Part shown: one piece after another, positions 35,894 to 48,048 of the stretch
Layout: each line of letters opens with the position of its first letter
Position numbering within the stretch: position 1 is the stretch's first letter
Assembly (NCBI GenBank): GCA_016710385.1
Contig: JADJVX010000011.1
Span: 136,054-200,053 of the forward strand
Length of the DNA stretch: 64,000 nt
Reading direction: 5' to 3'
Source: Actinomycetales bacterium
Lineage (GTDB): Bacteria > Actinomycetota > Actinomycetes > Actinomycetales > Dermatophilaceae
Program-made: the position numbers and the translations under genes
Notes under the pieces: model-generated
Seen by the model: only the letters and a program-made list of their open reading frames with translations
The model's database searches: none
Told to the model about the DNA's origin: nothing

Positions 35894-36799
35894 ATGCCCG
35901 AGGGCCACACCCTGCACCGGCTGGCAGGGTCGCTCAACGGTGCGTTCGCCGGCACCCGACCCGCGGTGAGCAGTCCGCAGGGTCGTTTCGTCGAGGGGGC
36001 CGCCTGGCTGGACGGGCACACCTTCATCGAGGCCGCGGCATGGGGGAAGCATCTCTTCGCGGAGTTTTCCGGGGACCGTTACCTACACGTCCACCTCGGG
36101 CTCATCGGGTCCTTCGACGTCACGGCATACGCGCCCGAGGCGGCGCTCGACGGCAGCGACGACACGGCATACCCGATCCCACCCGCGGTCGGTGCGGTGC
36201 GTCTGCGGCTGCTCACCGCGCGTCATGTCGCCGACTTGCGCGGCGCCACGCTGTGTCGCACTGCGACCCCCGAGGAGGTCGACGCGGTCATCGCGCGGCT
36301 CGGGCCTGACCCGCTGCGACCGGACGCCGATCCGGAACGCGCGTGGCGCCGGATCAGCACGAGCAACCGCACCATCGCCGACCTGCTCATGGACCAGTCG
36401 ATCCTCGCGGGGGTCGGCAACGTCTATCGCGCGGAGGTGCTCTTTCGGCACCGGATCGACCCCTTCCGGCCGGGGCGAGAGCTGCGCCGGCGCAGCTTCG
36501 AGAGCATCTGGGCCGACCTGGTCCAGCTGCTGCCCATCGGGGTGGCCTTGGGCCAAATCATCACGATGGCCGATCAGGTCGCTGACGCGCTCGCCGGCGA
36601 CTACGACCCCGCCCTGGTGCCGACCTCACCGACGGGGGTGTCGGCCTGGCGGCCCAACCCGCACGGCACGCTGGAACGGCGTTACTACGTCTACAAGCGC
36701 GACGGTATGCCGTGTCGCCAGTGCGGCTCTCGGGTGCGGACTGCTGTGGTGGCCGGCCGCAACCTCTTCTGGTGCGGACGGTGCCAGCGCCGTCGTTGA
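35894..36799 (+). CDS. nei: Fpg/Nei-family DNA glycosylase (endonuclease VIII-like)
   Basis: MPEGHTLHR N-terminal catalytic Pro. H2TH GVGNVYRAEVLF. C-terminal zinc finger CRQCG..FWCGRCQ. Confidence 0.85.
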   Translation: MPEGHTLHRLAGSLNGAFAGTRPAVSSPQGRFVEGAAWLDGHTFIEAAAWGKHLFAEFSGDRYLHVHLGLIGSFDVTAYAPEAALDGSDDTAYPIPPAVGAVRLRLLTARHVADLRGATLCRTATPEEVDAVIARLGPDPLRPDADPERAWRRISTSNRTIADLLMDQSILAGVGNVYRAEVLFRHRIDPFRPGRELRRRSFESIWADLVQLLPIGVALGQIITMADQVADALAGDYDPALVPTSPTGVSAWRPNPHGTLERRYYVYKRDGMPCRQCGSRVRTAVVAGRNLFWCGRCQRRR

Positions 36800-37032
36800 C
36801 GCGAAGGTTATGCAGATCAGATGTCATGAATCTGGGTCTACTCCGTCATACACCTGTCAGCATGCCCATCCCCCTGGCAGGAGCTCCGATGCGCGCCGAC
36901 CGCTCACCACGATCTAAGGGTGACCGGACAGCCGACCATGCCAGGACAAAACGCCTGTACTATGACAACGAGGCTGGGGGGCCAGCCGGGCACCACATTT
37001 CCCTCCATGTGCTGCGCAACAAAGGACATCTC

Positions 37033-40000
37033 ATGACGTTGACCCCGCATTTCGCCATGGCTGCCGGGGCGCGTGCGTCCAGCGCCGAGTCGCGTCCATC
37101 CCCACAGCGACGGCTGACCTCCCTGGTCATCGCATGCGTGCTGGCGTTCATGTCCATCGGTCTGCCGGTGGTACTACCGCCATCGACAGGCTTGCTGCCC
37201 GAGGCCGCGGCGGCGCTCACGACCGCGAACTGCAACATGGGCAGCATGGGTATCAACGGGGCCACCCCGTCGACGGTGTGCTGGCTGCAGACCGGAGGAT
37301 GGACCAAGCCGGCCAAGGGCGCCACGGCGACGACGACGAACCTCACGGCGACGGTCGGGGACTTCAAGTTCACCTACGACGTTGCCGTCTTCTACCACGC
37401 CAATTCATCGACACAGGCAGGGTCGGCAGCGGGCCCGACCTGGGCGTCGGCGGCCTTCGGCAGTGCCAGCTACGGCCCAAGTGCCACCACTCCTACGAGC
37501 TACATCTACGTGACCAACACCGCCCTCGGCATCGTCGAAGCGATGACGATGCGCGTCTCCAACGTCCGGGTCATCAACACGGCGACGAACGCTGTCGTGC
37601 CCTACGGCACCTGGAAGCTGGTCTTCGCGGACGCCGAATCCACCAACAGCAACAGCGCAACCACCCCGAACGAAAGCATCAAGTTCACTGCGAGCAATGC
37701 GATCTCCAACTTCGCGGCAGGCCTGACCACGGACTACATGAAGGGCGGCGGCACGACGGGCACGACTCTCGCCTGCCCCATGCCCACCTGGGGTGGAACG
37801 ACCGTGACCTGCACCGCCACGAGCAACAACAACGGCGTCATCATCGGTTCGACCACCCCGACCAGCGCCGCCGACTGGGGCCAAATCGGTGTCAACACCC
37901 TGAACTCCAAGCAGGCCGCTGCCTTCGGTTTCTCCATCTCCAGCGTTCAGCTGAAGAAGTCTGTCGCCTCTCGGGTGCTGCCGACGGACGACTTCAAGGT
38001 CACGATTGCCGACTCCGCCGGCACGACGGTCGGCAGCGCGAGCACCGGCACGACGACCTCGGCCGATACCACCGCCTATGCCGTGGTCCCTGGCACCTAC
38101 ACCCTGAGTGAGACGGCCAACTCGGGCTCGCTCTCTGAATACACCCAGGCCTGGAGCTGCGTGGACAACGCAGGCTTCGCGGCCCCGGCGGCGCCCTCGG
38201 GCACGTCAGGCACCGTGACGGTGCAACAGGGTTCGGCCATCGTCTGCACCGTGACCAACACCCGCAAGCCAGTCGACCTGCGTTTGACGAAGTCATCGCC
38301 AGCACCGGCGCTGTCGCCGGGGGTGGCGTCCGCCTACACGCTGAATGTCACGAACAACGGCGGTTCGACCGCGACGAACGCGGTCATCGTCGACCAACTG
38401 CCGGCCAATATCGCCTACACCTCCTCGTCGGGCACGGACTGGAGCTGTTCGGCCAGTGGCACGGTCGCAGCTGGGCAGCTCGTCACGTGCACCTACACCG
38501 GGTTGATCGCGCCCTCCGCGGCGGCTCCCGCGCTCACCATCACTGTCACTCCTGCGGACGCTGCCGGAGGCACGACCGTGACCAACAAGGCGGCGGTCAC
38601 CCCGACTGGGGGAACGACTGCCCCGACGGCGGCCGTCGTGCAGGCCTGCACCGGCTCGGCCACTCCCACGACGGGGTGTGCCACGTCGACGTCGACTGTC
38701 GCCACCAAGGCTGACATCGCCGTCACCAAGTCCGACTCCACGGGTTCCGTGGACGCCGGTGGGACGACTACGTATACCGTCACCGTCACCAACAACGGCC
38801 CCAACGCGGTGAGCAATGTGGTTGTCACCGACCCCGCAGTGAGTGGGCTGACCAAGACCACCATCGCCTGCGGGGCGGGATGCACGACGGCTCCGACGAA
38901 GACCCAACTCGAGGGAGCGGGCTACACGATTTCCTCGTTGGCCTCCGGTGCGAGCTTCACATTCACCGTGGGCGTAACGGTGACCGCGACGTCGGGAACC
39001 GTCGCCAACGCGGCGACGGCGACCCCGCCGGCCGGGACGATCGACGCAGCCGGCAACAACGCGGCCACCGACACCAACACGGTGACACCTGTCTCCGACT
39101 TGGCGGTCACCAAGACCGACAACGCGACCACGGTCGACGCGGGCGCCACGACCACCTACACCGTCCAGGTGACCAACAACGGCCCCTCGGCGGTCACCGG
39201 CGCGATCCTCACCGACCCGGCCGCGACGGGTCTGACCAAGACCGCGGTTGCGTGCGGGACGGGCTGCGCCACTGCTCCCTCGATCGCTGACCTCGAGACG
39301 GGTTACGCCCTGCCGACACTCGCCTCGGGTGCTTCGTATGCCGTGCAGGTGACGGTGCACGTTGACGCCACGAGCGGCTCGGTCACGAACGTCGCCACTG
39401 TGGCCCCGCCCGCCGGGACTCTGGACAAGGTTGTCACGAACGATTCCGCGGCCGACACGGACACGGTCGCCCCGGTTGCCGACGTGTCGGTGACCAAGGA
39501 CGACGGCGTGACCCAGGTCAACAAGAACGAATCACACACCTACACGATCACGGTCCACAACGCGGGCCCGTCGACGGCCACCGGCTTCGTGCTCACCGAC
39601 CCGGCGGCAACCGGTCTGACCAAGACGGCTGTGGCCTGCGTGACGGGGTGCGCGACGGCTCCGACGATCGCGCAGCTCGAAGGTGCAGGTTACGTGATAC
39701 CGGATCTAGCATCCGGCAGCGACTTCGTCATCACAGTCACCGCGACGGTCACCCAGTCGCAGGGTTCGGTGACAAACACCGCCGTCGCCACGGCTCCGGC
39801 CGGGGTCAAGGACCCTGACACCGCCAACAACACCGGCAGTGACACCGACAATCTGGTTCCGCTGGCCGACCTGACGGTGACCAAGACCGACGGCGTCGCA
39901 GGGGCCAAGCCGGGCGACACCGTGACGTACACGGTCACGGTCAGCAATCCGTCGGGTCTGTCGACCGCCGCCAACGTCGTCATCACGGACCCGGCCGTGG

Positions 40001-43000
40001 CCGGCTTGACCGTGACGGCCGTGGCGTGCACGTCCCTCGCGGGCAATCTCTGCACGACCAACCCGACCATCAGCGCTTTGCAGGGCGCCGGTGTTGCGAT
40101 CGGCACCATGAGCTCGGGGTCCACCTACGAGTTCACCGTGACCGCAACCGTGGACGCGACGTCGGGGACGGTAACGAACACCGCGACGGCGACCACGTCG
40201 ACCCAGGACCCCAACCTGGCCAACAACAGTGCCAGTGACACCGACACGGTGGTCGGCCCGCCGGTCATCAGTGGTCCGGCAGAGGGATCGTTGATCAACG
40301 ACAACACCCCGCTGATCACGGGGACGGGCATCCCGGGTGCCACCGTGACCGTCACCGAGGGTGGGGTCACCCTGTGCACTGCCGTGGCCGCGCCCGATGG
40401 CACGTGGTCGTGCACGTCATCGCAGCTGACCGACGGCCCGCACACCATCTCCGCGACGCAGACGACTGCGGGCGTGACCTCCACCGCCGACACTCAGACT
40501 TTCACGGTGGACACGACCGCTCCGGTGGTGACGGCGACGTCGCCGGCGGTGACGAATGACACGACGCCGACGATTTCGGGGACGACGGATTTGCCGGCGG
40601 GTTCGACGATCACGGTGACTGAGGGTGGTGTGGCGGTGTGTACGGCCACGGTTGCTGCTGATGGGTCGTGGACGTGTGACCCGGTGACGGCGTTGCCGGA
40701 GGGGTCGCACACGTTTACTGCGTCGGGGACGGATGCGGCGGGGAATACGACGACCGCGACGACGACGACGGTGATTGATGTGACGGCTCCGGTGGTGACG
40801 GCGACGTCGCCGGCGGTGACGAATGACACGACGCCGACGATTTCGGGGACGACGGATTTGCCGGCGGGTTCGACGATCACGGTGACTGAGGGTGGTGTGG
40901 CGGTGTGTACGGCCACGGTTGCTGCTGATGGGTCGTGGACGTGTGACCCGGTGACGGCGTTGCCGGAGGGGTCGCACACGTTTACTGCGTCGGGGACGGA
41001 TGCGGCGGGGAATACGACGACCGCGACGACGACGACGGTGATTGATGTGACGGCTCCGGTGGTGACGGCGACGTCGCCGGCGGTGACGAATGACACGACG
41101 CCGACGATTTCGGGGACGACGGATTTGCCGGCGGGTTCGACGATCACGGTGACTGAGGGTGGTGTGGCGGTGTGTACGGCCACGGTTGCTGCTGATGGGT
41201 CGTGGACGTGTGACCCGGTGACGGCGTTGCCGGAGGGGTCGCACACGTTTACTGCGTCGGGGACGGATGCGGCGGGGAATACGACGACCGCGACGACGAC
41301 GACGGTGATTGATGTGACGGCTCCGGTGGTGACGGCGACGTCGCCGGCGGTGACGAATGACACGACGCCGACGATTTCGGGGACGACGGATTTGCCGGCG
41401 GGTTCGACGATCACGGTGACTGAGGGTGGTGTGGCGGTGTGTACGGCCACGGTTGCTGCTGATGGGTCGTGGACGTGTGACCCGGTGACGGCGTTGCCGG
41501 AGGGGTCGCACACGTTTACTGCGTCGGGGACGGATGCGGCGGGGAATACGACGACCGCGACGACGACGACGGTGATTGATGTGACGGCTCCGGTGGTGAC
41601 GGCGACGTCGCCGGCGGTGACGAATGACACGACGCCGACGATTTCGGGGACGACGGATTTGCCGGCGGGTTCGACGATCACGGTGACTGAGGGTGGTGTG
41701 GCGGTGTGTACGGCCACGGTTGCTGCTGATGGGTCGTGGACGTGTGACCCGGTGACGGCGTTGCCGGAGGGGTCGCACACGTTTACTGCGTCGGGGACGG
41801 ATGCGGCGGGGAATACGACGACCGCGACGACGACGACGGTGATTGATGTGACGGCTCCGGTGGTGACGGCGACGTCGCCGGCGGTGACGAATGACACGAC
41901 GCCGACGATTTCGGGGACGACGGATTTGCCGGCGGGTTCGACGATCACGGTGACTGAGGGTGGTGTGGCGGTGTGTACGGCCACGGTTGCTGCTGATGGG
42001 TCGTGGACGTGTGACCCGGTGACGGCGTTGCCGGAGGGGTCGCACACGTTTACTGCGTCGGGGACGGATGCGGCGGGGAATACGACGACCGCGACGACGA
42101 CGACGGTGATTGATGTGACGGCTCCGGTGGTGACGGCGACGTCGCCGGCGGTGACGAATGACACGACGCCGACGATTTCGGGGACGACGGATTTGCCGGC
42201 GGGTTCGACGATCACGGTGACTGAGGGTGGTGTGGCGGTGTGTACGGCCACGGTTGCTGCTGATGGGTCGTGGACGTGTGACCCGGTGACGGCGTTGCCG
42301 GAGGGGTCGCACACGTTTACTGCGTCGGGGACGGATGCGGCGGGGAATACGACGACCGCGACGACGACGACGGTGATTGATGTGACGGCTCCGGTGGTGA
42401 CGGCGACGTCGCCGGCGGTGACGAATGACACGACGCCGACGATTTCGGGGACGACGGATTTGCCGGCGGGTTCGACGATCACGGTGACTGAGGGTGGTGT
42501 GGCGGTGTGTACGGCCACGGTTGCTGCTGATGGGTCGTGGACGTGTGACCCGGTGACGGCGTTGCCGGAGGGGTCGCACACGTTTACTGCGTCGGGGACG
42601 GATGCGGCGGGGAATACGACGACCGCGACGACGACGACGGTGATTGATGTGACGGCTCCGGTGGTGACGGCGACGTCGCCGGCGGTGACGAATGACACGA
42701 CGCCGACGATTTCGGGGACGACGGATTTGCCGGCGGGTTCGACGATCACGGTGACTGAGGGTGGTGTGGCGGTGTGTACGGCCACGGTTGCTGCTGATGG
42801 GTCGTGGACGTGTGACCCGGTGACGGCGTTGCCGGAGGGGTCGCACACGTTTACTGCGTCGGGGACGGATGCGGCGGGGAATACGACGACCGCGACGACG
42901 ACGACGGTGATTGATGTGACGGCTCCGGTGGTGACGGCGACGTCGCCGGCGGTGACGAATGACACGACGCCGACGATTTCGGGGACGACGGATTTGCCGG

Positions 43001-45177
43001 CGGGTTCGACGATCACGGTGACTGAGGGTGGTGTGGCGGTGTGTACGGCCACGGTTGCTGCTGATGGGTCGTGGACGTGTGACCCGGTGACGGCGTTGCC
43101 GGAGGGGTCGCACACGTTTACTGCGTCGGGGACGGATGCGGCGGGGAATACGACGACCGCGACGACGACGACGGTGATTGATGTGACGGCTCCGGTGGTG
43201 ACGGCGACGTCGCCGGCGGTGACGAATGACACGACGCCGACGATTTCGGGGACGACGGATTTGCCGGCGGGTTCGACGATCACGGTGACTGAGGGTGGTG
43301 TGGCGGTGTGTACGGCCACGGTTGCTGCTGATGGGTCGTGGACGTGTGACCCGGTGACGGCGTTGCCGGAGGGGTCGCACACGTTTACTGCGTCGGGGAC
43401 GGATGCGGCGGGGAATACGACGACCGCGACGACGACGACGGTGATTGATGTGACGGCTCCGGTGGTGACGGCGACGTCGCCGGCGGTGACGAATGACACG
43501 ACGCCGACGATTTCGGGGACGACGGATTTGCCGGCGGGTTCGACGATCACGGTGACTGAGGGTGGTGTGGCGGTGTGTACGGCCACGGTTGCTGCTGATG
43601 GGTCGTGGACGTGTGACCCGGTGACGGCGTTGCCGGAGGGGTCGCACACGTTTACTGCGTCGGGGACGGATGCGGCGGGGAATACGACGACCGCGACGAC
43701 GACGACGGTGATTGATGTGACGGCTCCGGTGGTGACGGCGACGTCGCCGGCGGTGACGAATGACACGACGCCGACGATTTCGGGGACGACGGATTTGCCG
43801 GCGGGTTCGACGATCACGGTGACTGAGGGTGGTGTGGCGGTGTGTACGGCCACGGTTGCTGCTGATGGGTCGTGGACGTGTGACCCGGTGACGGCGTTGC
43901 CGGAGGGGTCGCACACGTTTACTGCGTCGGGGACGGATGCGGCGGGGAATACGACGACCGCGACGACGACGACGGTGATTGATGTGACGGCTCCGGTGGT
44001 GACGGCGACGTCGCCGGCGGTGACGAATGACACGACGCCGACGATTTCGGGGACGACGGATTTGCCGGCGGGTTCGACGATCACGGTGACTGAGGGTGGT
44101 GTGGCGGTGTGTACGGCCACGGTTGCTGCTGATGGGTCGTGGACGTGTGACCCGGTGACGGCGTTGCCGGAGGGGTCGCACACGTTTACTGCGTCGGGGA
44201 CGGATGCGGCGGGGAATACGACGACCGCGACGACGACGACGGTGATTGATGTGACGGCTCCGGTGGTGACGGCGACGTCGCCGGCGGTGACGAATGACAC
44301 GACGCCGACGATTTCGGGGACGACGGATTTGCCGGCGGGTTCGACGATCACGGTGACTGAGGGTGGTGTGGCGGTGTGTACGGCCACGGTTGCTGCTGAT
44401 GGGTCGTGGACGTGTGACCCGGTGACGGCGTTGCCGGAGGGGTCGCACACGTTTACTGCGTCGGGGACGGATGCGGCGGGGAATACGACGACCGCGACGA
44501 CGACGACGGTGATTGATGTGACGGCTCCGGTGGTGACGGCGACGTCGCCGGCGGTGACGAATGACACGACGCCGACGATTTCGGGGACGACGGATTTGCC
44601 GGCGGGTTCGACGATCACGGTGACTGAGGGTGGTGTGGCGGTGTGTACGGCCACGGTTGCTGCTGATGGGTCGTGGACGTGTGACCCGGTGACGGCGTTG
44701 CCGGAGGGGTCGCACACGTTTACTGCGTCGGGGACGGATGCGGCGGGGAATACGACGACCGCGACGACGACGACGGTGATTGATGTGACGGCTCCGGTGG
44801 TGTCGTTGGTGATTGATCCGGTGACGGCTGACAACGTGGTGAACGCGGTGGAGGCTGGTGGGCCGGTGTCGGTTACGGGCACGGTCAGTGGTGAGTTCGT
44901 TGCTGGTGACACGGTGACGTTGACGGTGAACGGGACCACGTATACGGGCGTGGTTGATGCGGCTGGGAAGTTCTCGATTCCGGTGCCGGGTGCGGAGTTG
45001 GTGGCTGACCCGGATGTGACGGTGGATGGTTCGGTGTCCACGGTTGATGCGGCGGGTAACCCTGGGTCGGCGTCGGATTCTCAGCTGTATGCGGTGGATG
45101 TGACGGCTCCGGTGGTGCGTGGGGGGGGGGGGGCGGGGGGGGGGGGCGATGGAGCCCGTGGTGTCGTTGGTGATTGA
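37033..45177 (+). CDS. Giant LPXTG surface protein, N-terminal fragment (signal peptide, unknown tip domain, Cna-B/SpaA-like domain, 5 DUF11 repeats, Ig-like repeats)
   Basis: ATG 37033 lies 7 nt after AAAGGA (track ORF 36712.. reads through from nei). TM/signal LTSLVIACVLAFMSIGLPVV. DUF11-type units (DLxVTKTD..TYTVxVTNNGPS..). Then come one Ig-like unit and 16 identical 89-aa units. The last roughly 60 nt (45118-45177) are read-through of a poly-G tract. Confidence 0.8.
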   Translation: MTLTPHFAMAAGARASSAESRPSPQRRLTSLVIACVLAFMSIGLPVVLPPSTGLLPEAAAALTTANCNMGSMGINGATPSTVCWLQTGGWTKPAKGATATTTNLTATVGDFKFTYDVAVFYHANSSTQAGSAAGPTWASAAFGSASYGPSATTPTSYIYVTNTALGIVEAMTMRVSNVRVINTATNAVVPYGTWKLVFADAESTNSNSATTPNESIKFTASNAISNFAAGLTTDYMKGGGTTGTTLACPMPTWGGTTVTCTATSNNNGVIIGSTTPTSAADWGQIGVNTLNSKQAAAFGFSISSVQLKKSVASRVLPTDDFKVTIADSAGTTVGSASTGTTTSADTTAYAVVPGTYTLSETANSGSLSEYTQAWSCVDNAGFAAPAAPSGTSGTVTVQQGSAIVCTVTNTRKPVDLRLTKSSPAPALSPGVASAYTLNVTNNGGSTATNAVIVDQLPANIAYTSSSGTDWSCSASGTVAAGQLVTCTYTGLIAPSAAAPALTITVTPADAAGGTTVTNKAAVTPTGGTTAPTAAVVQACTGSATPTTGCATSTSTVATKADIAVTKSDSTGSVDAGGTTTYTVTVTNNGPNAVSNVVVTDPAVSGLTKTTIACGAGCTTAPTKTQLEGAGYTISSLASGASFTFTVGVTVTATSGTVANAATATPPAGTIDAAGNNAATDTNTVTPVSDLAVTKTDNATTVDAGATTTYTVQVTNNGPSAVTGAILTDPAATGLTKTAVACGTGCATAPSIADLETGYALPTLASGASYAVQVTVHVDATSGSVTNVATVAPPAGTLDKVVTNDSAADTDTVAPVADVSVTKDDGVTQVNKNESHTYTITVHNAGPSTATGFVLTDPAATGLTKTAVACVTGCATAPTIAQLEGAGYVIPDLASGSDFVITVTATVTQSQGSVTNTAVATAPAGVKDPDTANNTGSDTDNLVPLADLTVTKTDGVAGAKPGDTVTYTVTVSNPSGLSTAANVVITDPAVAGLTVTAVACTSLAGNLCTTNPTISALQGAGVAIGTMSSGSTYEFTVTATVDATSGTVTNTATATTSTQDPNLANNSASDTDTVVGPPVISGPAEGSLINDNTPLITGTGIPGATVTVTEGGVTLCTAVAAPDGTWSCTSSQLTDGPHTISATQTTAGVTSTADTQTFTVDTTAPVVTATSPAVTNDTTPTISGTTDLPAGSTITVTEGGVAVCTATVAADGSWTCDPVTALPEGSHTFTASGTDAAGNTTTATTTTVIDVTAPVVTATSPAVTNDTTPTISGTTDLPAGSTITVTEGGVAVCTATVAADGSWTCDPVTALPEGSHTFTASGTDAAGNTTTATTTTVIDVTAPVVTATSPAVTNDTTPTISGTTDLPAGSTITVTEGGVAVCTATVAADGSWTCDPVTALPEGSHTFTASGTDAAGNTTTATTTTVIDVTAPVVTATSPAVTNDTTPTISGTTDLPAGSTITVTEGGVAVCTATVAADGSWTCDPVTALPEGSHTFTASGTDAAGNTTTATTTTVIDVTAPVVTATSPAVTNDTTPTISGTTDLPAGSTITVTEGGVAVCTATVAADGSWTCDPVTALPEGSHTFTASGTDAAGNTTTATTTTVIDVTAPVVTATSPAVTNDTTPTISGTTDLPAGSTITVTEGGVAVCTATVAADGSWTCDPVTALPEGSHTFTASGTDAAGNTTTATTTTVIDVTAPVVTATSPAVTNDTTPTISGTTDLPAGSTITVTEGGVAVCTATVAADGSWTCDPVTALPEGSHTFTASGTDAAGNTTTATTTTVIDVTAPVVTATSPAVTNDTTPTISGTTDLPAGSTITVTEGGVAVCTATVAADGSWTCDPVTALPEGSHTFTASGTDAAGNTTTATTTTVIDVTAPVVTATSPAVTNDTTPTISGTTDLPAGSTITVTEGGVAVCTATVAADGSWTCDPVTALPEGSHTFTASGTDAAGNTTTATTTTVIDVTAPVVTATSPAVTNDTTPTISGTTDLPAGSTITVTEGGVAVCTATVAADGSWTCDPVTALPEGSHTFTASGTDAAGNTTTATTTTVIDVTAPVVTATSPAVTNDTTPTISGTTDLPAGSTITVTEGGVAVCTATVAADGSWTCDPVTALPEGSHTFTASGTDAAGNTTTATTTTVIDVTAPVVTATSPAVTNDTTPTISGTTDLPAGSTITVTEGGVAVCTATVAADGSWTCDPVTALPEGSHTFTASGTDAAGNTTTATTTTVIDVTAPVVTATSPAVTNDTTPTISGTTDLPAGSTITVTEGGVAVCTATVAADGSWTCDPVTALPEGSHTFTASGTDAAGNTTTATTTTVIDVTAPVVTATSPAVTNDTTPTISGTTDLPAGSTITVTEGGVAVCTATVAADGSWTCDPVTALPEGSHTFTASGTDAAGNTTTATTTTVIDVTAPVVTATSPAVTNDTTPTISGTTDLPAGSTITVTEGGVAVCTATVAADGSWTCDPVTALPEGSHTFTASGTDAAGNTTTATTTTVIDVTAPVVTATSPAVTNDTTPTISGTTDLPAGSTITVTEGGVAVCTATVAADGSWTCDPVTALPEGSHTFTASGTDAAGNTTTATTTTVIDVTAPVVSLVIDPVTADNVVNAVEAGGPVSVTGTVSGEFVAGDTVTLTVNGTTYTGVVDAAGKFSIPVPGAELVADPDVTVDGSVSTVDAAGNPGSASDSQLYAVDVTAPVVRGGGGAGGGGDGARGVVGD
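40519..44790 (+). repeat. Tandem array: 16 x 267 bp (89 aa Ig-like unit), apparently 100% identical
   Basis: The period was measured between GCTCCGGTGGTG anchors (40519, 40786 ... 44791). (44791-40519)/267 = 16.0. Copy-to-copy translations are identical in three different frames of the supplied track. Confidence 0.9.
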
Positions 45178-47322
45178 TCCGGTGACGGCTGACAACGTGG
45201 TGAACGCGGTGAGGCTGGTGGGCCGGTGTCGGTTACGGGCACGGTCAGTGGTGAGTTTCGTTGCTGGTGACACGGTGACGTTGACGGTGAACGGGACCAC
45301 GTATACGGGCGTGGTTGATGCGGCTGGGAAGTTCTCGATTCCGGTGCGGGTGCGGGTTGGTGGCTGAGATGTGCGGTGGCGGGGAACCCTGGGTCGGCGT
45401 CGGATTCTCAGCTGTATGCGGTGGATGTGACGGCTCCGGTGGTGTCGTTGGTGATTGATCCGGTGACGGCTGACAACGTGGTGAACGCGGTGGAGGCTGG
45501 TGGGCCGGTGTCGGTTACGGGCACGGTCAGTGGTGAGTTCGTTGCTGGTGACACGGTGACGTTGACGGTGAACGGGAACACGTATACGGGCGTGGTTGAT
45601 GCGGCTGGGAAGTTCTCGATTCCGGTGCCGGGTGCGGAGTTGGTGGCTGACCCGGATGTGACGGTGGATGGTTCGGTGTCCACGGTTGATGCGGCGGGTA
45701 ACCCTGGGTCGGCGTCGGATTCTCAGCTGTATGCGGTGGATGTGACGGCTCCGGTGGTGTCGTTGGTGATTGATCCGGTGACGGCTGACAACGTGGTGAA
45801 CGCGGTGGAGGCTGGTGGGCCGGTGTCGGTTACGGGCACGGTCAGTGGTGAGTTTGTTGCTGGTGACACGGTGACGTTGACGGTGAACGGGAACACGTAT
45901 ACGGGCGTGGTTGATGCGGCTGGGAAGTTCTCGATTCCGGTGCCGGGTGCGGAGTTGGTGGCTGACCCGGATGTGACGGTGGATGGTTCGGTGTCCACGG
46001 TTGATGCGGCGGGTAACCCTGGGTCGGCGTCGGATTCTCAGCTGTATGCGGTGGATGTGACGGCTCCGGTGGTGTCGTTGGTGATTGATCCGGTGACGGC
46101 TGACAACGTGGTGAACGCGGTGGAGGCTGGTGGGCCGGTGTCGGTTACGGGCACGGTCAGTGGTGAGTTCGTTGCTGGTGACACGGTGACGTTGACGGTG
46201 AACGGGACCACGTATACGGGCGTGGTTGATGCGGCTGGGAAGTTCTCGATTCCGGTGCCGGGTGCGGAGTTGGTGGCTGACCCGGATGTGACGGTGGATG
46301 GTTCGGTGTCCACGGTTGATGCGGCGGGTAACCCTGGGTCGGCGTCGGATTCTCAGCCGTACACGGTGGATGTGACGGCTCCGGTGGTGTCGTTGGTGAT
46401 TGATCCGGTGACGGCTGACAACGTGGTGAACGCGGTGGAGGCTGGTGGGCCGGTGTTGGTTACGGGCACGGTCAGTGGTGAGTTTGTTGCTGGTGACACG
46501 GTGACGTTGACGGTGAACGGGACCACGTATACGGGCGTGGTTGATGCGGCTGGGAAGTTCTCGATTCCGGTGCCGGGTGCGGAGTTGGTGGCTGACCCGG
46601 ATGTGACGGTGGATGGTTCGGTGTCCACGGTTGATGCGGCGGGTAACCCTGGGTCGGCGTCGGATTCTCAGCCGTATGCGGTGGATGTGACGGCTCCGGT
46701 GGTGTCGTTGGTGATTGATCCGGTGACGGCTGACAACGTGGTGAACGCGGTGGAGGCTGGTGGGCCGGTGTCGGTTACGGGCACGGTCAGTGGTGAGTTC
46801 GTTGCTGGTGACACGGTGACGTTGACGGTGAACGGGACCACGTATACGGGCGTGGTTGATGCGGCTGGGAAGTTCTCGATTCCGGTGCCGGGTGCGGAGT
46901 TGGTGGCTGACCCGGATGTGACGGTGGATGGTTCGGTGTCCACGGTTGATGCGGCGGGTAACCCTGGGTCGGCGTCGGATTCTCAGCCGTACACGGTGGA
47001 TGTGACGGCTCCGGTGGTGTCGTTGGTGATTGATCCGGTGACGGCTGACAACGTGGTGAACGCGGTGGAGGCTGGTGGGCCGGTGTCGGTTACGGGCACG
47101 GTCAGTGGTGAGTTCGTTGCTGGTGACACGGTGACGTTGACGGTGAACGGGACCACGTATACGGGCGTGGTTGATGCGGCTGGGAAGTTCTCGATTCCGG
47201 TGCCGGGTGCGGAGTTGGTGGCTGACCCGGATGTGACGGTGGATGGTTCGGTGTCCACGGTTGATGCGGCGGGTAACCCTGGGTCGGCGTCGGATTCTCA
47301 GCCGTACACGGTGGACGCGGGC
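44791..47322 (+). repeat. Tandem array: 8 x 315 bp (105 aa Ig-like unit), near-identical, second copy degraded
   Basis: Unit starts are 44791, 45106 (degraded, 327 bp), 45433, 45748, 46063, 46378, 46693 and 47008. A few substitutions separate copies (N/T, L/P, A/T, S/L, and synonymous TTC/TTT). Confidence 0.85.
45121..45146. other. G13-C-G12 low-complexity tract at a degraded repeat junction (probable assembly/basecalling artefact)
   Basis: Read directly: 13 G, one C, 12 G. It is followed by a repeat copy carrying several 1-nt indels and a truncated 3-prime end (to about 45432). Confidence 0.7.
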
Positions 47323-48048
47323 GTCACGCCCCCGGTGATCACGGGGCCAGTGGACGGGTCGTCGACGACGAACACCACGCCGCCGATCAGCGGCACCGGT
47401 GAGCCCGGCGCCACGGTCACGGTCACCGAGAATGGGCAGCCGATCTGCACCGCCATGGTCGCGCAGGACGGCACCTGGTCCTGCACCCCGACGGCCCCCT
47501 TGGCCGGTGGGACGCACACCTTCCAGGCGACGCAGACCGATCTAGCGGGCAACGTCTCCGCGAGGTCGAATGTTGTCTCGGTGTCGATCATCACCGCCGT
47601 CATCGAAGGTCACGTGTTCCTTGACGGCAACGCGAACACCACCCTGGACGGGGGTGAGGCGGACATCGCGAAGGTCACCGTCGAGTTGGTTAAAGACGGC
47701 GTCGTCGTCGCCACCCAGGTGACGGCCAGCCCGTACCGGTTCACCGGGGTCGCTGACGGCACCTACACGATCCGCGTCGTGAACGGCCCGGCCCTGGCTG
47801 GCCTGACCGCGACGACCGAGCCTGACGCCCTCAAGACGGTGACCATGGTCAACCAGGTGTCGATCTACGAGCAGAACTTCGGCTATGTCCCCGCGGCACT
47901 GCCGAAAACGGGGTCTGACGTGGCCCCGGTGCTGTTCAGTGGGCTCGGCCTGGTGACCCTTGGGTTCGTGGCCCTGCTGGCGGTCCGCCGCCGTCACGAG
48001 GATGACGAAGAGGTCGTGGCCCGTGTCGGCGCTGACGAGATGAACTGA
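45376..48048 (+). CDS. Giant LPXTG surface protein, C-terminal fragment (Ig-like repeats, SdrD-B/Cna-B-like domain, sortase signal)
   Basis: The open frame resumes inside the degraded copy. It ends with LPKTGSDVAPVLFSGLGLVTLGFVALLAVRRRHEDD (LPXTG, TM helix, basic tail). It is very probably one gene with 37033..45177. Confidence 0.8.
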   Translation: MAGNPGSASDSQLYAVDVTAPVVSLVIDPVTADNVVNAVEAGGPVSVTGTVSGEFVAGDTVTLTVNGNTYTGVVDAAGKFSIPVPGAELVADPDVTVDGSVSTVDAAGNPGSASDSQLYAVDVTAPVVSLVIDPVTADNVVNAVEAGGPVSVTGTVSGEFVAGDTVTLTVNGNTYTGVVDAAGKFSIPVPGAELVADPDVTVDGSVSTVDAAGNPGSASDSQLYAVDVTAPVVSLVIDPVTADNVVNAVEAGGPVSVTGTVSGEFVAGDTVTLTVNGTTYTGVVDAAGKFSIPVPGAELVADPDVTVDGSVSTVDAAGNPGSASDSQPYTVDVTAPVVSLVIDPVTADNVVNAVEAGGPVLVTGTVSGEFVAGDTVTLTVNGTTYTGVVDAAGKFSIPVPGAELVADPDVTVDGSVSTVDAAGNPGSASDSQPYAVDVTAPVVSLVIDPVTADNVVNAVEAGGPVSVTGTVSGEFVAGDTVTLTVNGTTYTGVVDAAGKFSIPVPGAELVADPDVTVDGSVSTVDAAGNPGSASDSQPYTVDVTAPVVSLVIDPVTADNVVNAVEAGGPVSVTGTVSGEFVAGDTVTLTVNGTTYTGVVDAAGKFSIPVPGAELVADPDVTVDGSVSTVDAAGNPGSASDSQPYTVDAGVTPPVITGPVDGSSTTNTTPPISGTGEPGATVTVTENGQPICTAMVAQDGTWSCTPTAPLAGGTHTFQATQTDLAGNVSARSNVVSVSIITAVIEGHVFLDGNANTTLDGGEADIAKVTVELVKDGVVVATQVTASPYRFTGVADGTYTIRVVNGPALAGLTATTEPDALKTVTMVNQVSIYEQNFGYVPAALPKTGSDVAPVLFSGLGLVTLGFVALLAVRRRHEDDEEVVARVGADEMN

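Follow-up and report, generated by a model that had tools for sequence, protein, structure and literature searches.

A tandem-repeat block with G- and T-ending codons in a predicted actinobacterial adhesin gene is probably a new example of GRINS

Duplicated DNA of >500 bp and >80% identity in which the mean absolute GC and TA skews both exceed.15 in 150-nt windows was described in 2021 under the name of repeats with intense nucleotide skews (GRINS; PMC8256042). Third codon positions carry the strongest skews, GC and TA skews are correlated, as a rule positively, and the encoded proteins are functional; the copies are near-identical within a genome and diverged between relatives (PMC8256042). 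GRINS have been known mainly from polyketide synthase (PKS) genes. They are commonest in Actinobacteria and also occur in non-PKS genes, endonucleases accounting for 15% of actinobacterial GRINS (PMC8256042). Our literature search found no later mechanistic work on GRINS. Here we describe a block of tandem repeats with aberrant codon usage in the giant gene of a predicted LPXTG-anchored surface adhesin. The gene lies in a window of 64,000 nucleotides (the whole stretch of DNA analyzed), which spans positions 136,054 to 200,053 of contig JADJVX010000011.1 in the 3.83-Mb assembly GCA_016710385.1 of an Actinomycetales bacterium of the family Dermatophilaceae. The block consists of an array of 267-bp units followed by an array of 315-bp units. 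The 315-bp array meets the published GRINS definition outright, and we consider it probable that the block as a whole is a new example of GRINS, with a caveat on the TA skew of the 267-bp array, and is not borrowed DNA.

Codon usage and strand composition of the repeat block

The adhesin gene has a likely start near 37033 and a stop at 48048 (~3,670 codons), and is split by the assembly into two open reading frames (ORFs), 36712–45177 and 45376–48048. It encodes, in order, five DUF11 domains, a Big_13 domain, the sixteen 267-bp units, the eight 315-bp units, another Big_13 domain, an SdrD_B-like domain, and an LPKTG anchor. Its features, in window coordinates, are as follows (C3 is the frequency of C at third codon positions, and likewise for G3, T3, and A3).

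36712–48048, plus strand: giant LPXTG-anchored surface adhesin gene, as predicted from ORFs and Pfam domains
40260–40518, plus strand: left flanking Big_13 Ig-like unit with normal, C-ending codons (C3 = 0.45; 44% protein identity to the inner unit)
40519–44790, plus strand: sixteen tandem 267-bp units, one Big_13 Ig-like domain each (Big_13 E = 1e-43)
44782–44802, plus strand: 21-nt joint GATGTGACGGCTCCGGTGGTG at the 267/315 junction, encoding D-V-T-A-P-V-V and identical at every unit boundary of both arrays
44791–47315, plus strand: eight tandem 315-bp units of 105 amino acids each, with no significant Pfam family
45106–45432, plus strand: corrupted second 315-bp copy, with G13-C-G12 at 45119–45145, several 1-nt indels, and a truncated 3' end
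47316–47580, plus strand: right flanking Big_13 Ig-like unit with normal codons (C3 = 0.455; Big_13 E = 3e-17; 45% identity to the inner unit)
47581–48048, plus strand: SdrD_B-like domain and LPXTG (LPKTG) cell-wall anchor, with normal codons

A preliminary description of this DNA had claimed an abrupt switch in codon usage and strand composition at the borders of the block, and skews, third-position composition, and codon counts all confirm it. The GC skew of the plus strand rises from about -0.07 to between +0.27 and +0.42 at 40500 and drops back at 47500, and the AT skew flips sign across the block. GC content is flat across the borders (0.66). In the frame of the gene, the third positions of the non-repeat 5' part are C.51, G.36, T.09, and A.05, as against C.067, G.708, T.225, and A 0 in the 267-bp block and C.133, G.584, T.283, and A 0 in the 315-bp block. 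Typical coding ORFs of this genome have a C3 of 0.49 (standard deviation 0.05, n = 1635), placing both blocks 7–8 standard deviations off. Codon positions 1 and 2 are nearly constant across flanks and blocks, and the shift is therefore synonymous.

At the level of single codons, the 267-bp unit has C-ending codons at exactly 6 of 89 positions, in agreement with the earlier estimate of about six (binomial p = 7e-17 against the flank frequency of 0.476), and the 315-bp unit at 13 of 105 (p = 3e-14, same reference). In the 267-bp unit, Thr is ACG in 23 of 26 cases, Val GTG in 9 of 10, Leu TTG in 2 of 2, Asn AAT in 2 of 2, and Asp GAT in 4 of 6. One of the codon preferences listed in the preliminary description does not hold for the 315-bp unit, in which Asn is encoded by AAC at all five occurrences. 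G occupies 58 of 69 four-fold sites in the 267-bp unit and 53 of 75 in the 315-bp unit, and T occupies 9 of 12 and 11 of 20 two-fold pyrimidine sites, respectively. Motifs of the G-quadruplex type (G3+N1-7)x4 were absent from the arrays, which have more G2-type runs only.

These tests were run on single units, since the 16 identical copies amount to only 89 independent codons in 4.3 kb. The same identity would favor a founder effect, in which one unit of odd composition was merely multiplied by amplification. We consider this highly improbable, as one unit already departs from flank usage at the p value given above, the unrelated second type of unit departs as well, and at least eight further repeat families show the bias.

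The borders of the arrays are sharp to one codon and coincide with the end of repeat identity. On the left, gaC acG acC occurs just upstream of 40519, as compared with gaT gtG acG in the repeats; on the right, taT/gaT gives way to taC/gaC from about 47305, in the last unit. We found no mobility genes at the borders, which lie within one ORF, at domain boundaries.

The sixteen 267-bp units do not differ at a single base, and the seven clean 315-bp copies have 1–7 differing sites; array copies are 99–100% identical. The duplication is also evident by window mapping. The 21-nt joint is found at the close of each unit in the two arrays (23 copies, over 40777–47019) and is likely to be a substrate for unequal recombination. 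With the published windows (150 nt, step 30), the mean absolute GC skew is 0.278 in the 267-bp block and 0.374 in the 315-bp block, as compared with 0.095 in the non-repeat part of the gene. The mean absolute TA skew of the 315-bp block is 0.291, likewise above the published threshold. The concentration of the skew at third positions is seen in position-specific composition and in codon tables, with the match to Big_13 preserved. Homologous arrays in a congener have absolute GC skews of only.05–.13, and the orthologues of another recoded gene of this genome, discussed below, are normal in 19 relatives, as expected for a lineage-specific skew.

Pfam matches in the adhesin are to DUF11 (five, E 4e-69), DUF7507, Big_13, SdrD_B, and Gram_pos_anchor. 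The last scores 20.9 bits (cut-off 20) and covers the LPKTG motif, which is followed by a hydrophobic stretch and RRRH at the C-terminus. A putative signal peptide was recognized at the N-terminus by eye only. The C-terminal anchor features along with the repetitive Ig-like stalk identify the product, as judged from its sequence, as a predicted LPXTG-anchored surface adhesin.

The preliminary description had also noted that antisense frames stay open across the block, and two such frames were indeed found, of 2366 and 1515 codons.

40417–47517, minus strand: antisense open frame, a by-product of the C-poor sense strand
40494–45041, minus strand: antisense open frame of 1515 codons, sharing third positions with the sense frame

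Both are by-products of the C-poor sense strand and not genes, because the domain homology lies on the sense strand. The frame at 40494–45041 has C-ending codons (C3 about.70) and a plausible-looking product rich in Val, Thr, and Ala, and gene finders may call it beside or instead of the real gene.

Poly-G or poly-C runs of 10–637 nt occur by the dozen in the assembly and are typical of sequencing or assembly noise (e.g., G000:C11:216657-217061, C11:269387-270501, C21:132873-133429, C2:14243 onward, C15:14408-14684, and C17:230227-230473; G000 is the present genome); the G13-C-G12 run in the adhesin gene is probably one of these. In addition, ~600 kb of the assembly is duplicated between small and large contigs at >=85% identity and with normal composition (C1, C2, C4-C10, C13, C19, C20, C24, C25, and others). 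This duplication looks like uncollapsed assembly redundancy or a strain mixture and may explain a contamination estimate of 4.4%. Against this background of runs and redundant contigs, the corrupted second 315-bp copy, which breaks the reading frame and thereby splits the adhesin ORF, is itself probably an assembly artefact. The runs, the redundant contigs, and the corrupted copy might invite the view that the whole codon switch is a sequencing or assembly artefact, but this is scarcely credible. Errors fall without regard to codon position, and positions 1 and 2 are unaltered. The frame is open for 6.8 kb save for the one corrupted copy, and its translation matches Big_13 at the E value given above. 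The redundant contigs themselves have normal composition, and GRINS are documented in finished genomes (PMC8256042).

Recoding of other repeats and the search for a donor

We scanned the assembly in six frames for the same codon dialect (C3 <=.18, G3 >=.5, T3 >=.12, A3 <=.06). About 33 kb was found in total, with the adhesin block as the largest piece. Segments of >=400 bp are nearly all multi-copy DNA, comprising a MoxR ATPase gene pair, RHS-type pieces, a DUF222-HNH family, repeats of a 4517-amino acid and an 1825-amino acid surface protein, and a duplicated secreted-protein gene. A re-implementation of the published GRINS procedure, with one poly-G artefact discounted, returned about 40 regions amounting to about 62 kb. 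These include the 315-bp block, the MoxR pair, RHS pieces, DUF222-HNH copies, and other surface-protein arrays. A rule that all repeats are recoded was rejected, as the redundant contigs and some multi-copy elements are normal and two arrays are skewed on the non-coding strand.

The MoxR pair offers a comparison with a gene in conserved surroundings. Its two copies (G000:C22:150560-151549 and 155439-156428) are 4.9 kb apart and are 99.2–99.4% identical over about 990 bp, a length that takes in the ORF and roughly twelve bases at either end. Recoding and duplication occupy the same 990-bp tract, and the neighboring genes have normal codons and are syntenic with a congener (G002), in which the second copy is missing from the syntenic region. 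The G002 orthologue has 91% amino acid identity and a C3 of.51, as compared with.10 here, and C3 is normal in the orthologues of all 19 relatives examined. Of 133 conserved codons ending in C in G002, 56 have become G-ending and 51 T-ending, with 26 kept; A-ending codons have become G-ending in 22 of 24 cases, and Leu CTC has become TTG in 15. In a vertically inherited gene, C has therefore been lost from the coding strand wherever a synonymous change was possible, and solely within the duplicated DNA. Flanking DNA is about 70% identical between the two genomes, which allows ample time, and the recoding of MoxR is thus no evidence of speed.

The DUF222-HNH endonuclease family has 13–18 copies that are 87–97% identical (e.g., C26:43350-45142, C11:132742-134383, and C11:30257-31905). 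GC and TA skews in these copies are positive in the first ~450 nt and negative in the last ~300 nt, and the copies vary less in the skewed 5' part than in the middle (about 0.12 versus 0.22 variants per site). An ongoing mutational push was rejected as a description of the family, as the rare variants in the skewed part of 13 copies bring no net gain of G or T. Homogenization of already skewed sequence fits the variant pattern better than mutation of each copy. Taken together, the homogeneity of the adhesin arrays, the lower diversity of the skewed part in DUF222-HNH copies, and the coincidence of the MoxR duplicate with the recoded tract are consistent with spread and maintenance by gene conversion.

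Two arrays have the opposite polarity. SpaA-like modules (C11:42031-47100) and TPR repeats (C12:18541-21000) have a C3 of.73–.74 and a G3 of.17–.18. Both pass the GRINS thresholds, with the G/T-rich strand opposite to the coding strand. The skew is limited to repeats and to synonymous sites, it recurs in unrelated families, and in one case it occurs in conserved synteny.

The preliminary description had offered two readings of the switch, namely a cassette from another genome that recombined into a resident adhesin, or an unusual strand-specific mutational regime acting on the array, and had proposed a search with the units for a donor lineage. We carried out this search with the protein of the 267-bp and 315-bp units against one genome per species (185,579 species genomes). 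It returned 78 loci, mostly proteobacterial Bap-like adhesins that are 34–54% identical, and the best full-length matches have 49–53% protein identity. None of the 78 loci has C3 depletion in its homologous repeats. Two exact-word scans of metagenome contigs for the units gave no match. The nearest relative, at about 55% protein identity, is an adhesin of another congener (L048, G009:C50:40000-58000), which has the sole related arrays within the genus. It has the same two types of modules in reversed order (~12 of 105 amino acids, then three of 89 amino acids) and carries additional thrombospondin-type-3-like Asp-rich repeats. A3 is near 0 and T3 is raised (.15–.19) in its arrays, and C3 is.25 in the 89-amino acid units. 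This is a weak shift in the same direction, with skews under the GRINS thresholds.

A horizontally acquired cassette, from a lineage that prefers G- and T-ending codons, would account for the sharp compositional borders and for the low identity between the inner and flanking Big_13 units (44–45% for the units compared above and 39–53% over all pairs, which, being short and strongly diverged, would not yield an informative tree), and the best matches outside the genus are indeed proteobacterial adhesins. Nevertheless, we consider this origin very unlikely. Those proteobacterial matches are distant in protein sequence and lack the dialect, a congener's adhesin is closer, and the metagenome scans were empty. 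GC content is constant, the borders lie inside one ORF without mobility genes, and the dialect extends to MoxR, a gene inherited vertically and in conserved synteny, and to many unrelated families of repeats. We therefore set aside a foreign cassette or genomic island, for which no donor was found and for which the anomaly is not specific to the segment. The codon dialect is instead, given that the recoding is confined to repeats, a by-product of repeat evolution in this genome and not the signature of a donor. The second reading agrees with our findings, except that the regime is not peculiar to the array and corresponds to the published GRINS, which are tied to duplicated DNA.

Strand polarity and a possible mechanism

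An alternative at the level of RNA is that selection favors a C-poor, G-rich transcript, for instance for escape from Rho-dependent termination in so long a gene for a secreted protein, or for translation slowed by non-preferred codons during folding or secretion of the domains. The coding strand of the adhesin is the C-poor one. YC dinucleotides, which are determinants of Rho binding (Y, pyrimidine), go from 16.4 per 100 nt to 6.4–8.2 in the arrays, and purines from.49 to.56–.58. Because YC dinucleotides are 2–2.6-fold fewer, the transcript of the arrays is likely to be a poor Rho substrate. A model of purine bias and Rho under runaway transcription has been published (Nat Microbiol 2026; PMC13323073), and the depletion of C and of YC dinucleotides from the coding strand is shared with it. 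That model, however, predicts an A+G bias over the whole gene, whereas here T is up, A is gone, and only the repeats are affected, with other repeats of this genome carrying the skew on the template strand. Purine enrichment for Rho avoidance was rejected on these grounds, the shift being of the keto type and limited to repeats, with purines at.49–.51 in the rest of the gene.

Other observations also make selection on the transcript quite improbable. Outside the block, the same transcript has the normal C-rich codons in its 3.5-kb 5' part and in its 3' part, and the borders of the switch follow repeat identity with single-codon precision. Composition changes along the keto/amino axis (G+T from.45 to.60–.67, T rising and A falling) and not along the purine/pyrimidine axis. 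MoxR, a cytoplasmic ATPase of 322 codons, is recoded only where it is duplicated, and other arrays of this genome are skewed on the non-coding strand. RNA folding is not consistently weakened, with z = -1.2 for the 267-bp unit and z = +3.8 for the 315-bp unit. Selection for weakly folded mRNA was accordingly rejected, as folding energies relative to recodings with typical codons disagree between the arrays.

We favor a strand-asymmetric bias at the DNA level that is coupled to homogenization of repeats. Two resident types of module, the Big_13 Ig-like domain and the 105-amino acid module, would have been amplified in tandem within an LPXTG adhesin. Concerted evolution, through unequal recombination or gene conversion, would have kept the copies near-identical, with aid from the shared 21-nt joint. 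A strand-asymmetric process confined to repeats would then have removed C from the plus strand at every synonymous opportunity, putting G in its place at four-fold sites and T at two-fold sites and turning the CTN codons of Leu into TTG. A would have been removed by the usual GC pressure of the genome, and purifying selection would have held the protein throughout.

For the cause of the asymmetry, we would look first to biased processing of heteroduplexes between copies of a repeat. The genome encodes NucS/EndoMS and lacks MutS, and NucS cleaves only G/T, G/G, and T/T mismatches (PMC6159521). Asymmetric strand transfer, set by the direction of replication, together with processing of keto-keto mismatches might drive one strand to G+T. 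The resulting G-rich non-template strand may then promote R-loops and further recombination.

Some evidence on polarity bears on this. On one contig, repeats of both coding orientations have the G/T-rich strand on the same strand of DNA. We surveyed 11 in-situ GRINS loci on contigs C11, C12, C17, C18, C22, and C23 against the background skew within +/-60 kb, taken as readable at |skew| >=.017. GRINS polarity had the sign of the background GC skew in all seven loci with a readable background, which lie on five contigs and are not independent. This hints, as a lead only, that in GRINS the leading strand is the one rich in G and T. The background around the adhesin is -0.005, at which its own polarity relative to replication is not callable. 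The full proposal, that GRINS are an extreme, repeat-specific amplification of replication-strand skew through NucS/EndoMS processing of inter-repeat heteroduplexes, seems to us rather unlikely as it stands.

Several points weigh against assigning the block to GRINS and against the process sketched above. The mean absolute TA skew of the 267-bp block is 0.132, under the 0.15 threshold. This is because Thr (ACN), at 29% of residues, places A at first codon positions; at third positions the TA skew is maximal (T3.225, A3 0), and GC and TA skews are correlated within the block (r = +0.91). Within the 315-bp block, the windows of GC and TA skew have r = -0.08 to -0.40, although each skew has a strongly positive mean. 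Long-read polishing could account in part for the perfect identity of the 16 units. Rare variants in the skewed part of the 13 DUF222-HNH copies erode the skew and do not build it. The origin of GRINS is unexplained in the literature (PMC8256042), and the roles given here to NucS and gene conversion are hypothetical. As GRINS also occur in phyla with MutS/L (PMC8256042), NucS is not the general explanation.

Significance and comparison with described systems

This genome provides compact natural experiments on GRINS. These are a perfect 16-copy tandem array with codon-sharp borders inside one ORF, a housekeeping-type MoxR gene that is recoded only where duplicated and has normal orthologues, and arrays of both coding polarities on one contig. 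Such cases separate explanations at the level of DNA from those at the level of the transcript, and provide replication-linked strand polarity as a lead. If the reading through replication strand and NucS were true, it would be the first testable mechanism for GRINS. There are practical consequences as well. GRINS blocks mimic horizontal transfer in codon-usage screens, and the long antisense ORFs that they open look normal in codon usage and may be called by gene finders. A strongly G-rich non-template strand could affect transcription and the stability of arrays in surface-protein genes.

Compositional change limited to duplicated DNA is also a feature of fungal repeat-induced point mutation (RIP). 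However, RIP acts as C-to-T mutation on both strands, lowers GC content, and destroys genes. We rejected a RIP-like process, since GC content holds at.66, ORFs are intact, and the change differs between the strands and turns C into G as often as into T. Immunoglobulin class-switch regions, which are eukaryotic, non-coding, and dependent on AID, are associated with R-loops and with deamination of cytosines on the displaced strand. These regions and the adhesin array both consist of recombination-prone tandem repeats on the kilobase scale, with a G-rich non-template strand; the parallel is by analogy only, the array being bacterial, coding, and known here from sequence alone.

With adhesin arrays of the Sdr, Bap, and Esp types, the block shares near-identical tandem Ig-like modules in a wall-anchored protein, and a copy number that is probably variable through unequal recombination. 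To our knowledge, ordinary adhesin arrays keep the codon usage of their host, and the homologous arrays examined, none of the 78 loci with C3 depletion, differ from the block in this respect.

The closest described system is GRINS (PMC8256042). In published examples, the repeats are dispersed and lie in PKS modules, transposases, and endonucleases, with copies that are 75–95% identical, whereas the adhesin block is made of strictly head-to-tail Ig-like arrays with more uniform copies and belongs to an LPXTG adhesin from an actinobacterium outside Streptomyces with a small genome (3.8 Mb). The 267-bp array is just under the TA threshold, and there is no flip in sign within the adhesin element. 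Similar to published GRINS, the block is duplicated DNA beyond the published limits of length and identity, with GC and TA skews that are intense and agree in sign, with abrupt borders, and with skews that are strongest at third positions and leave the protein intact. Its copies are near-identical, with homologues in relatives that are diverged and unskewed. As is common for GRINS, it occurs in an actinobacterium, and HNH-type endonuclease genes are affected in this genome too.

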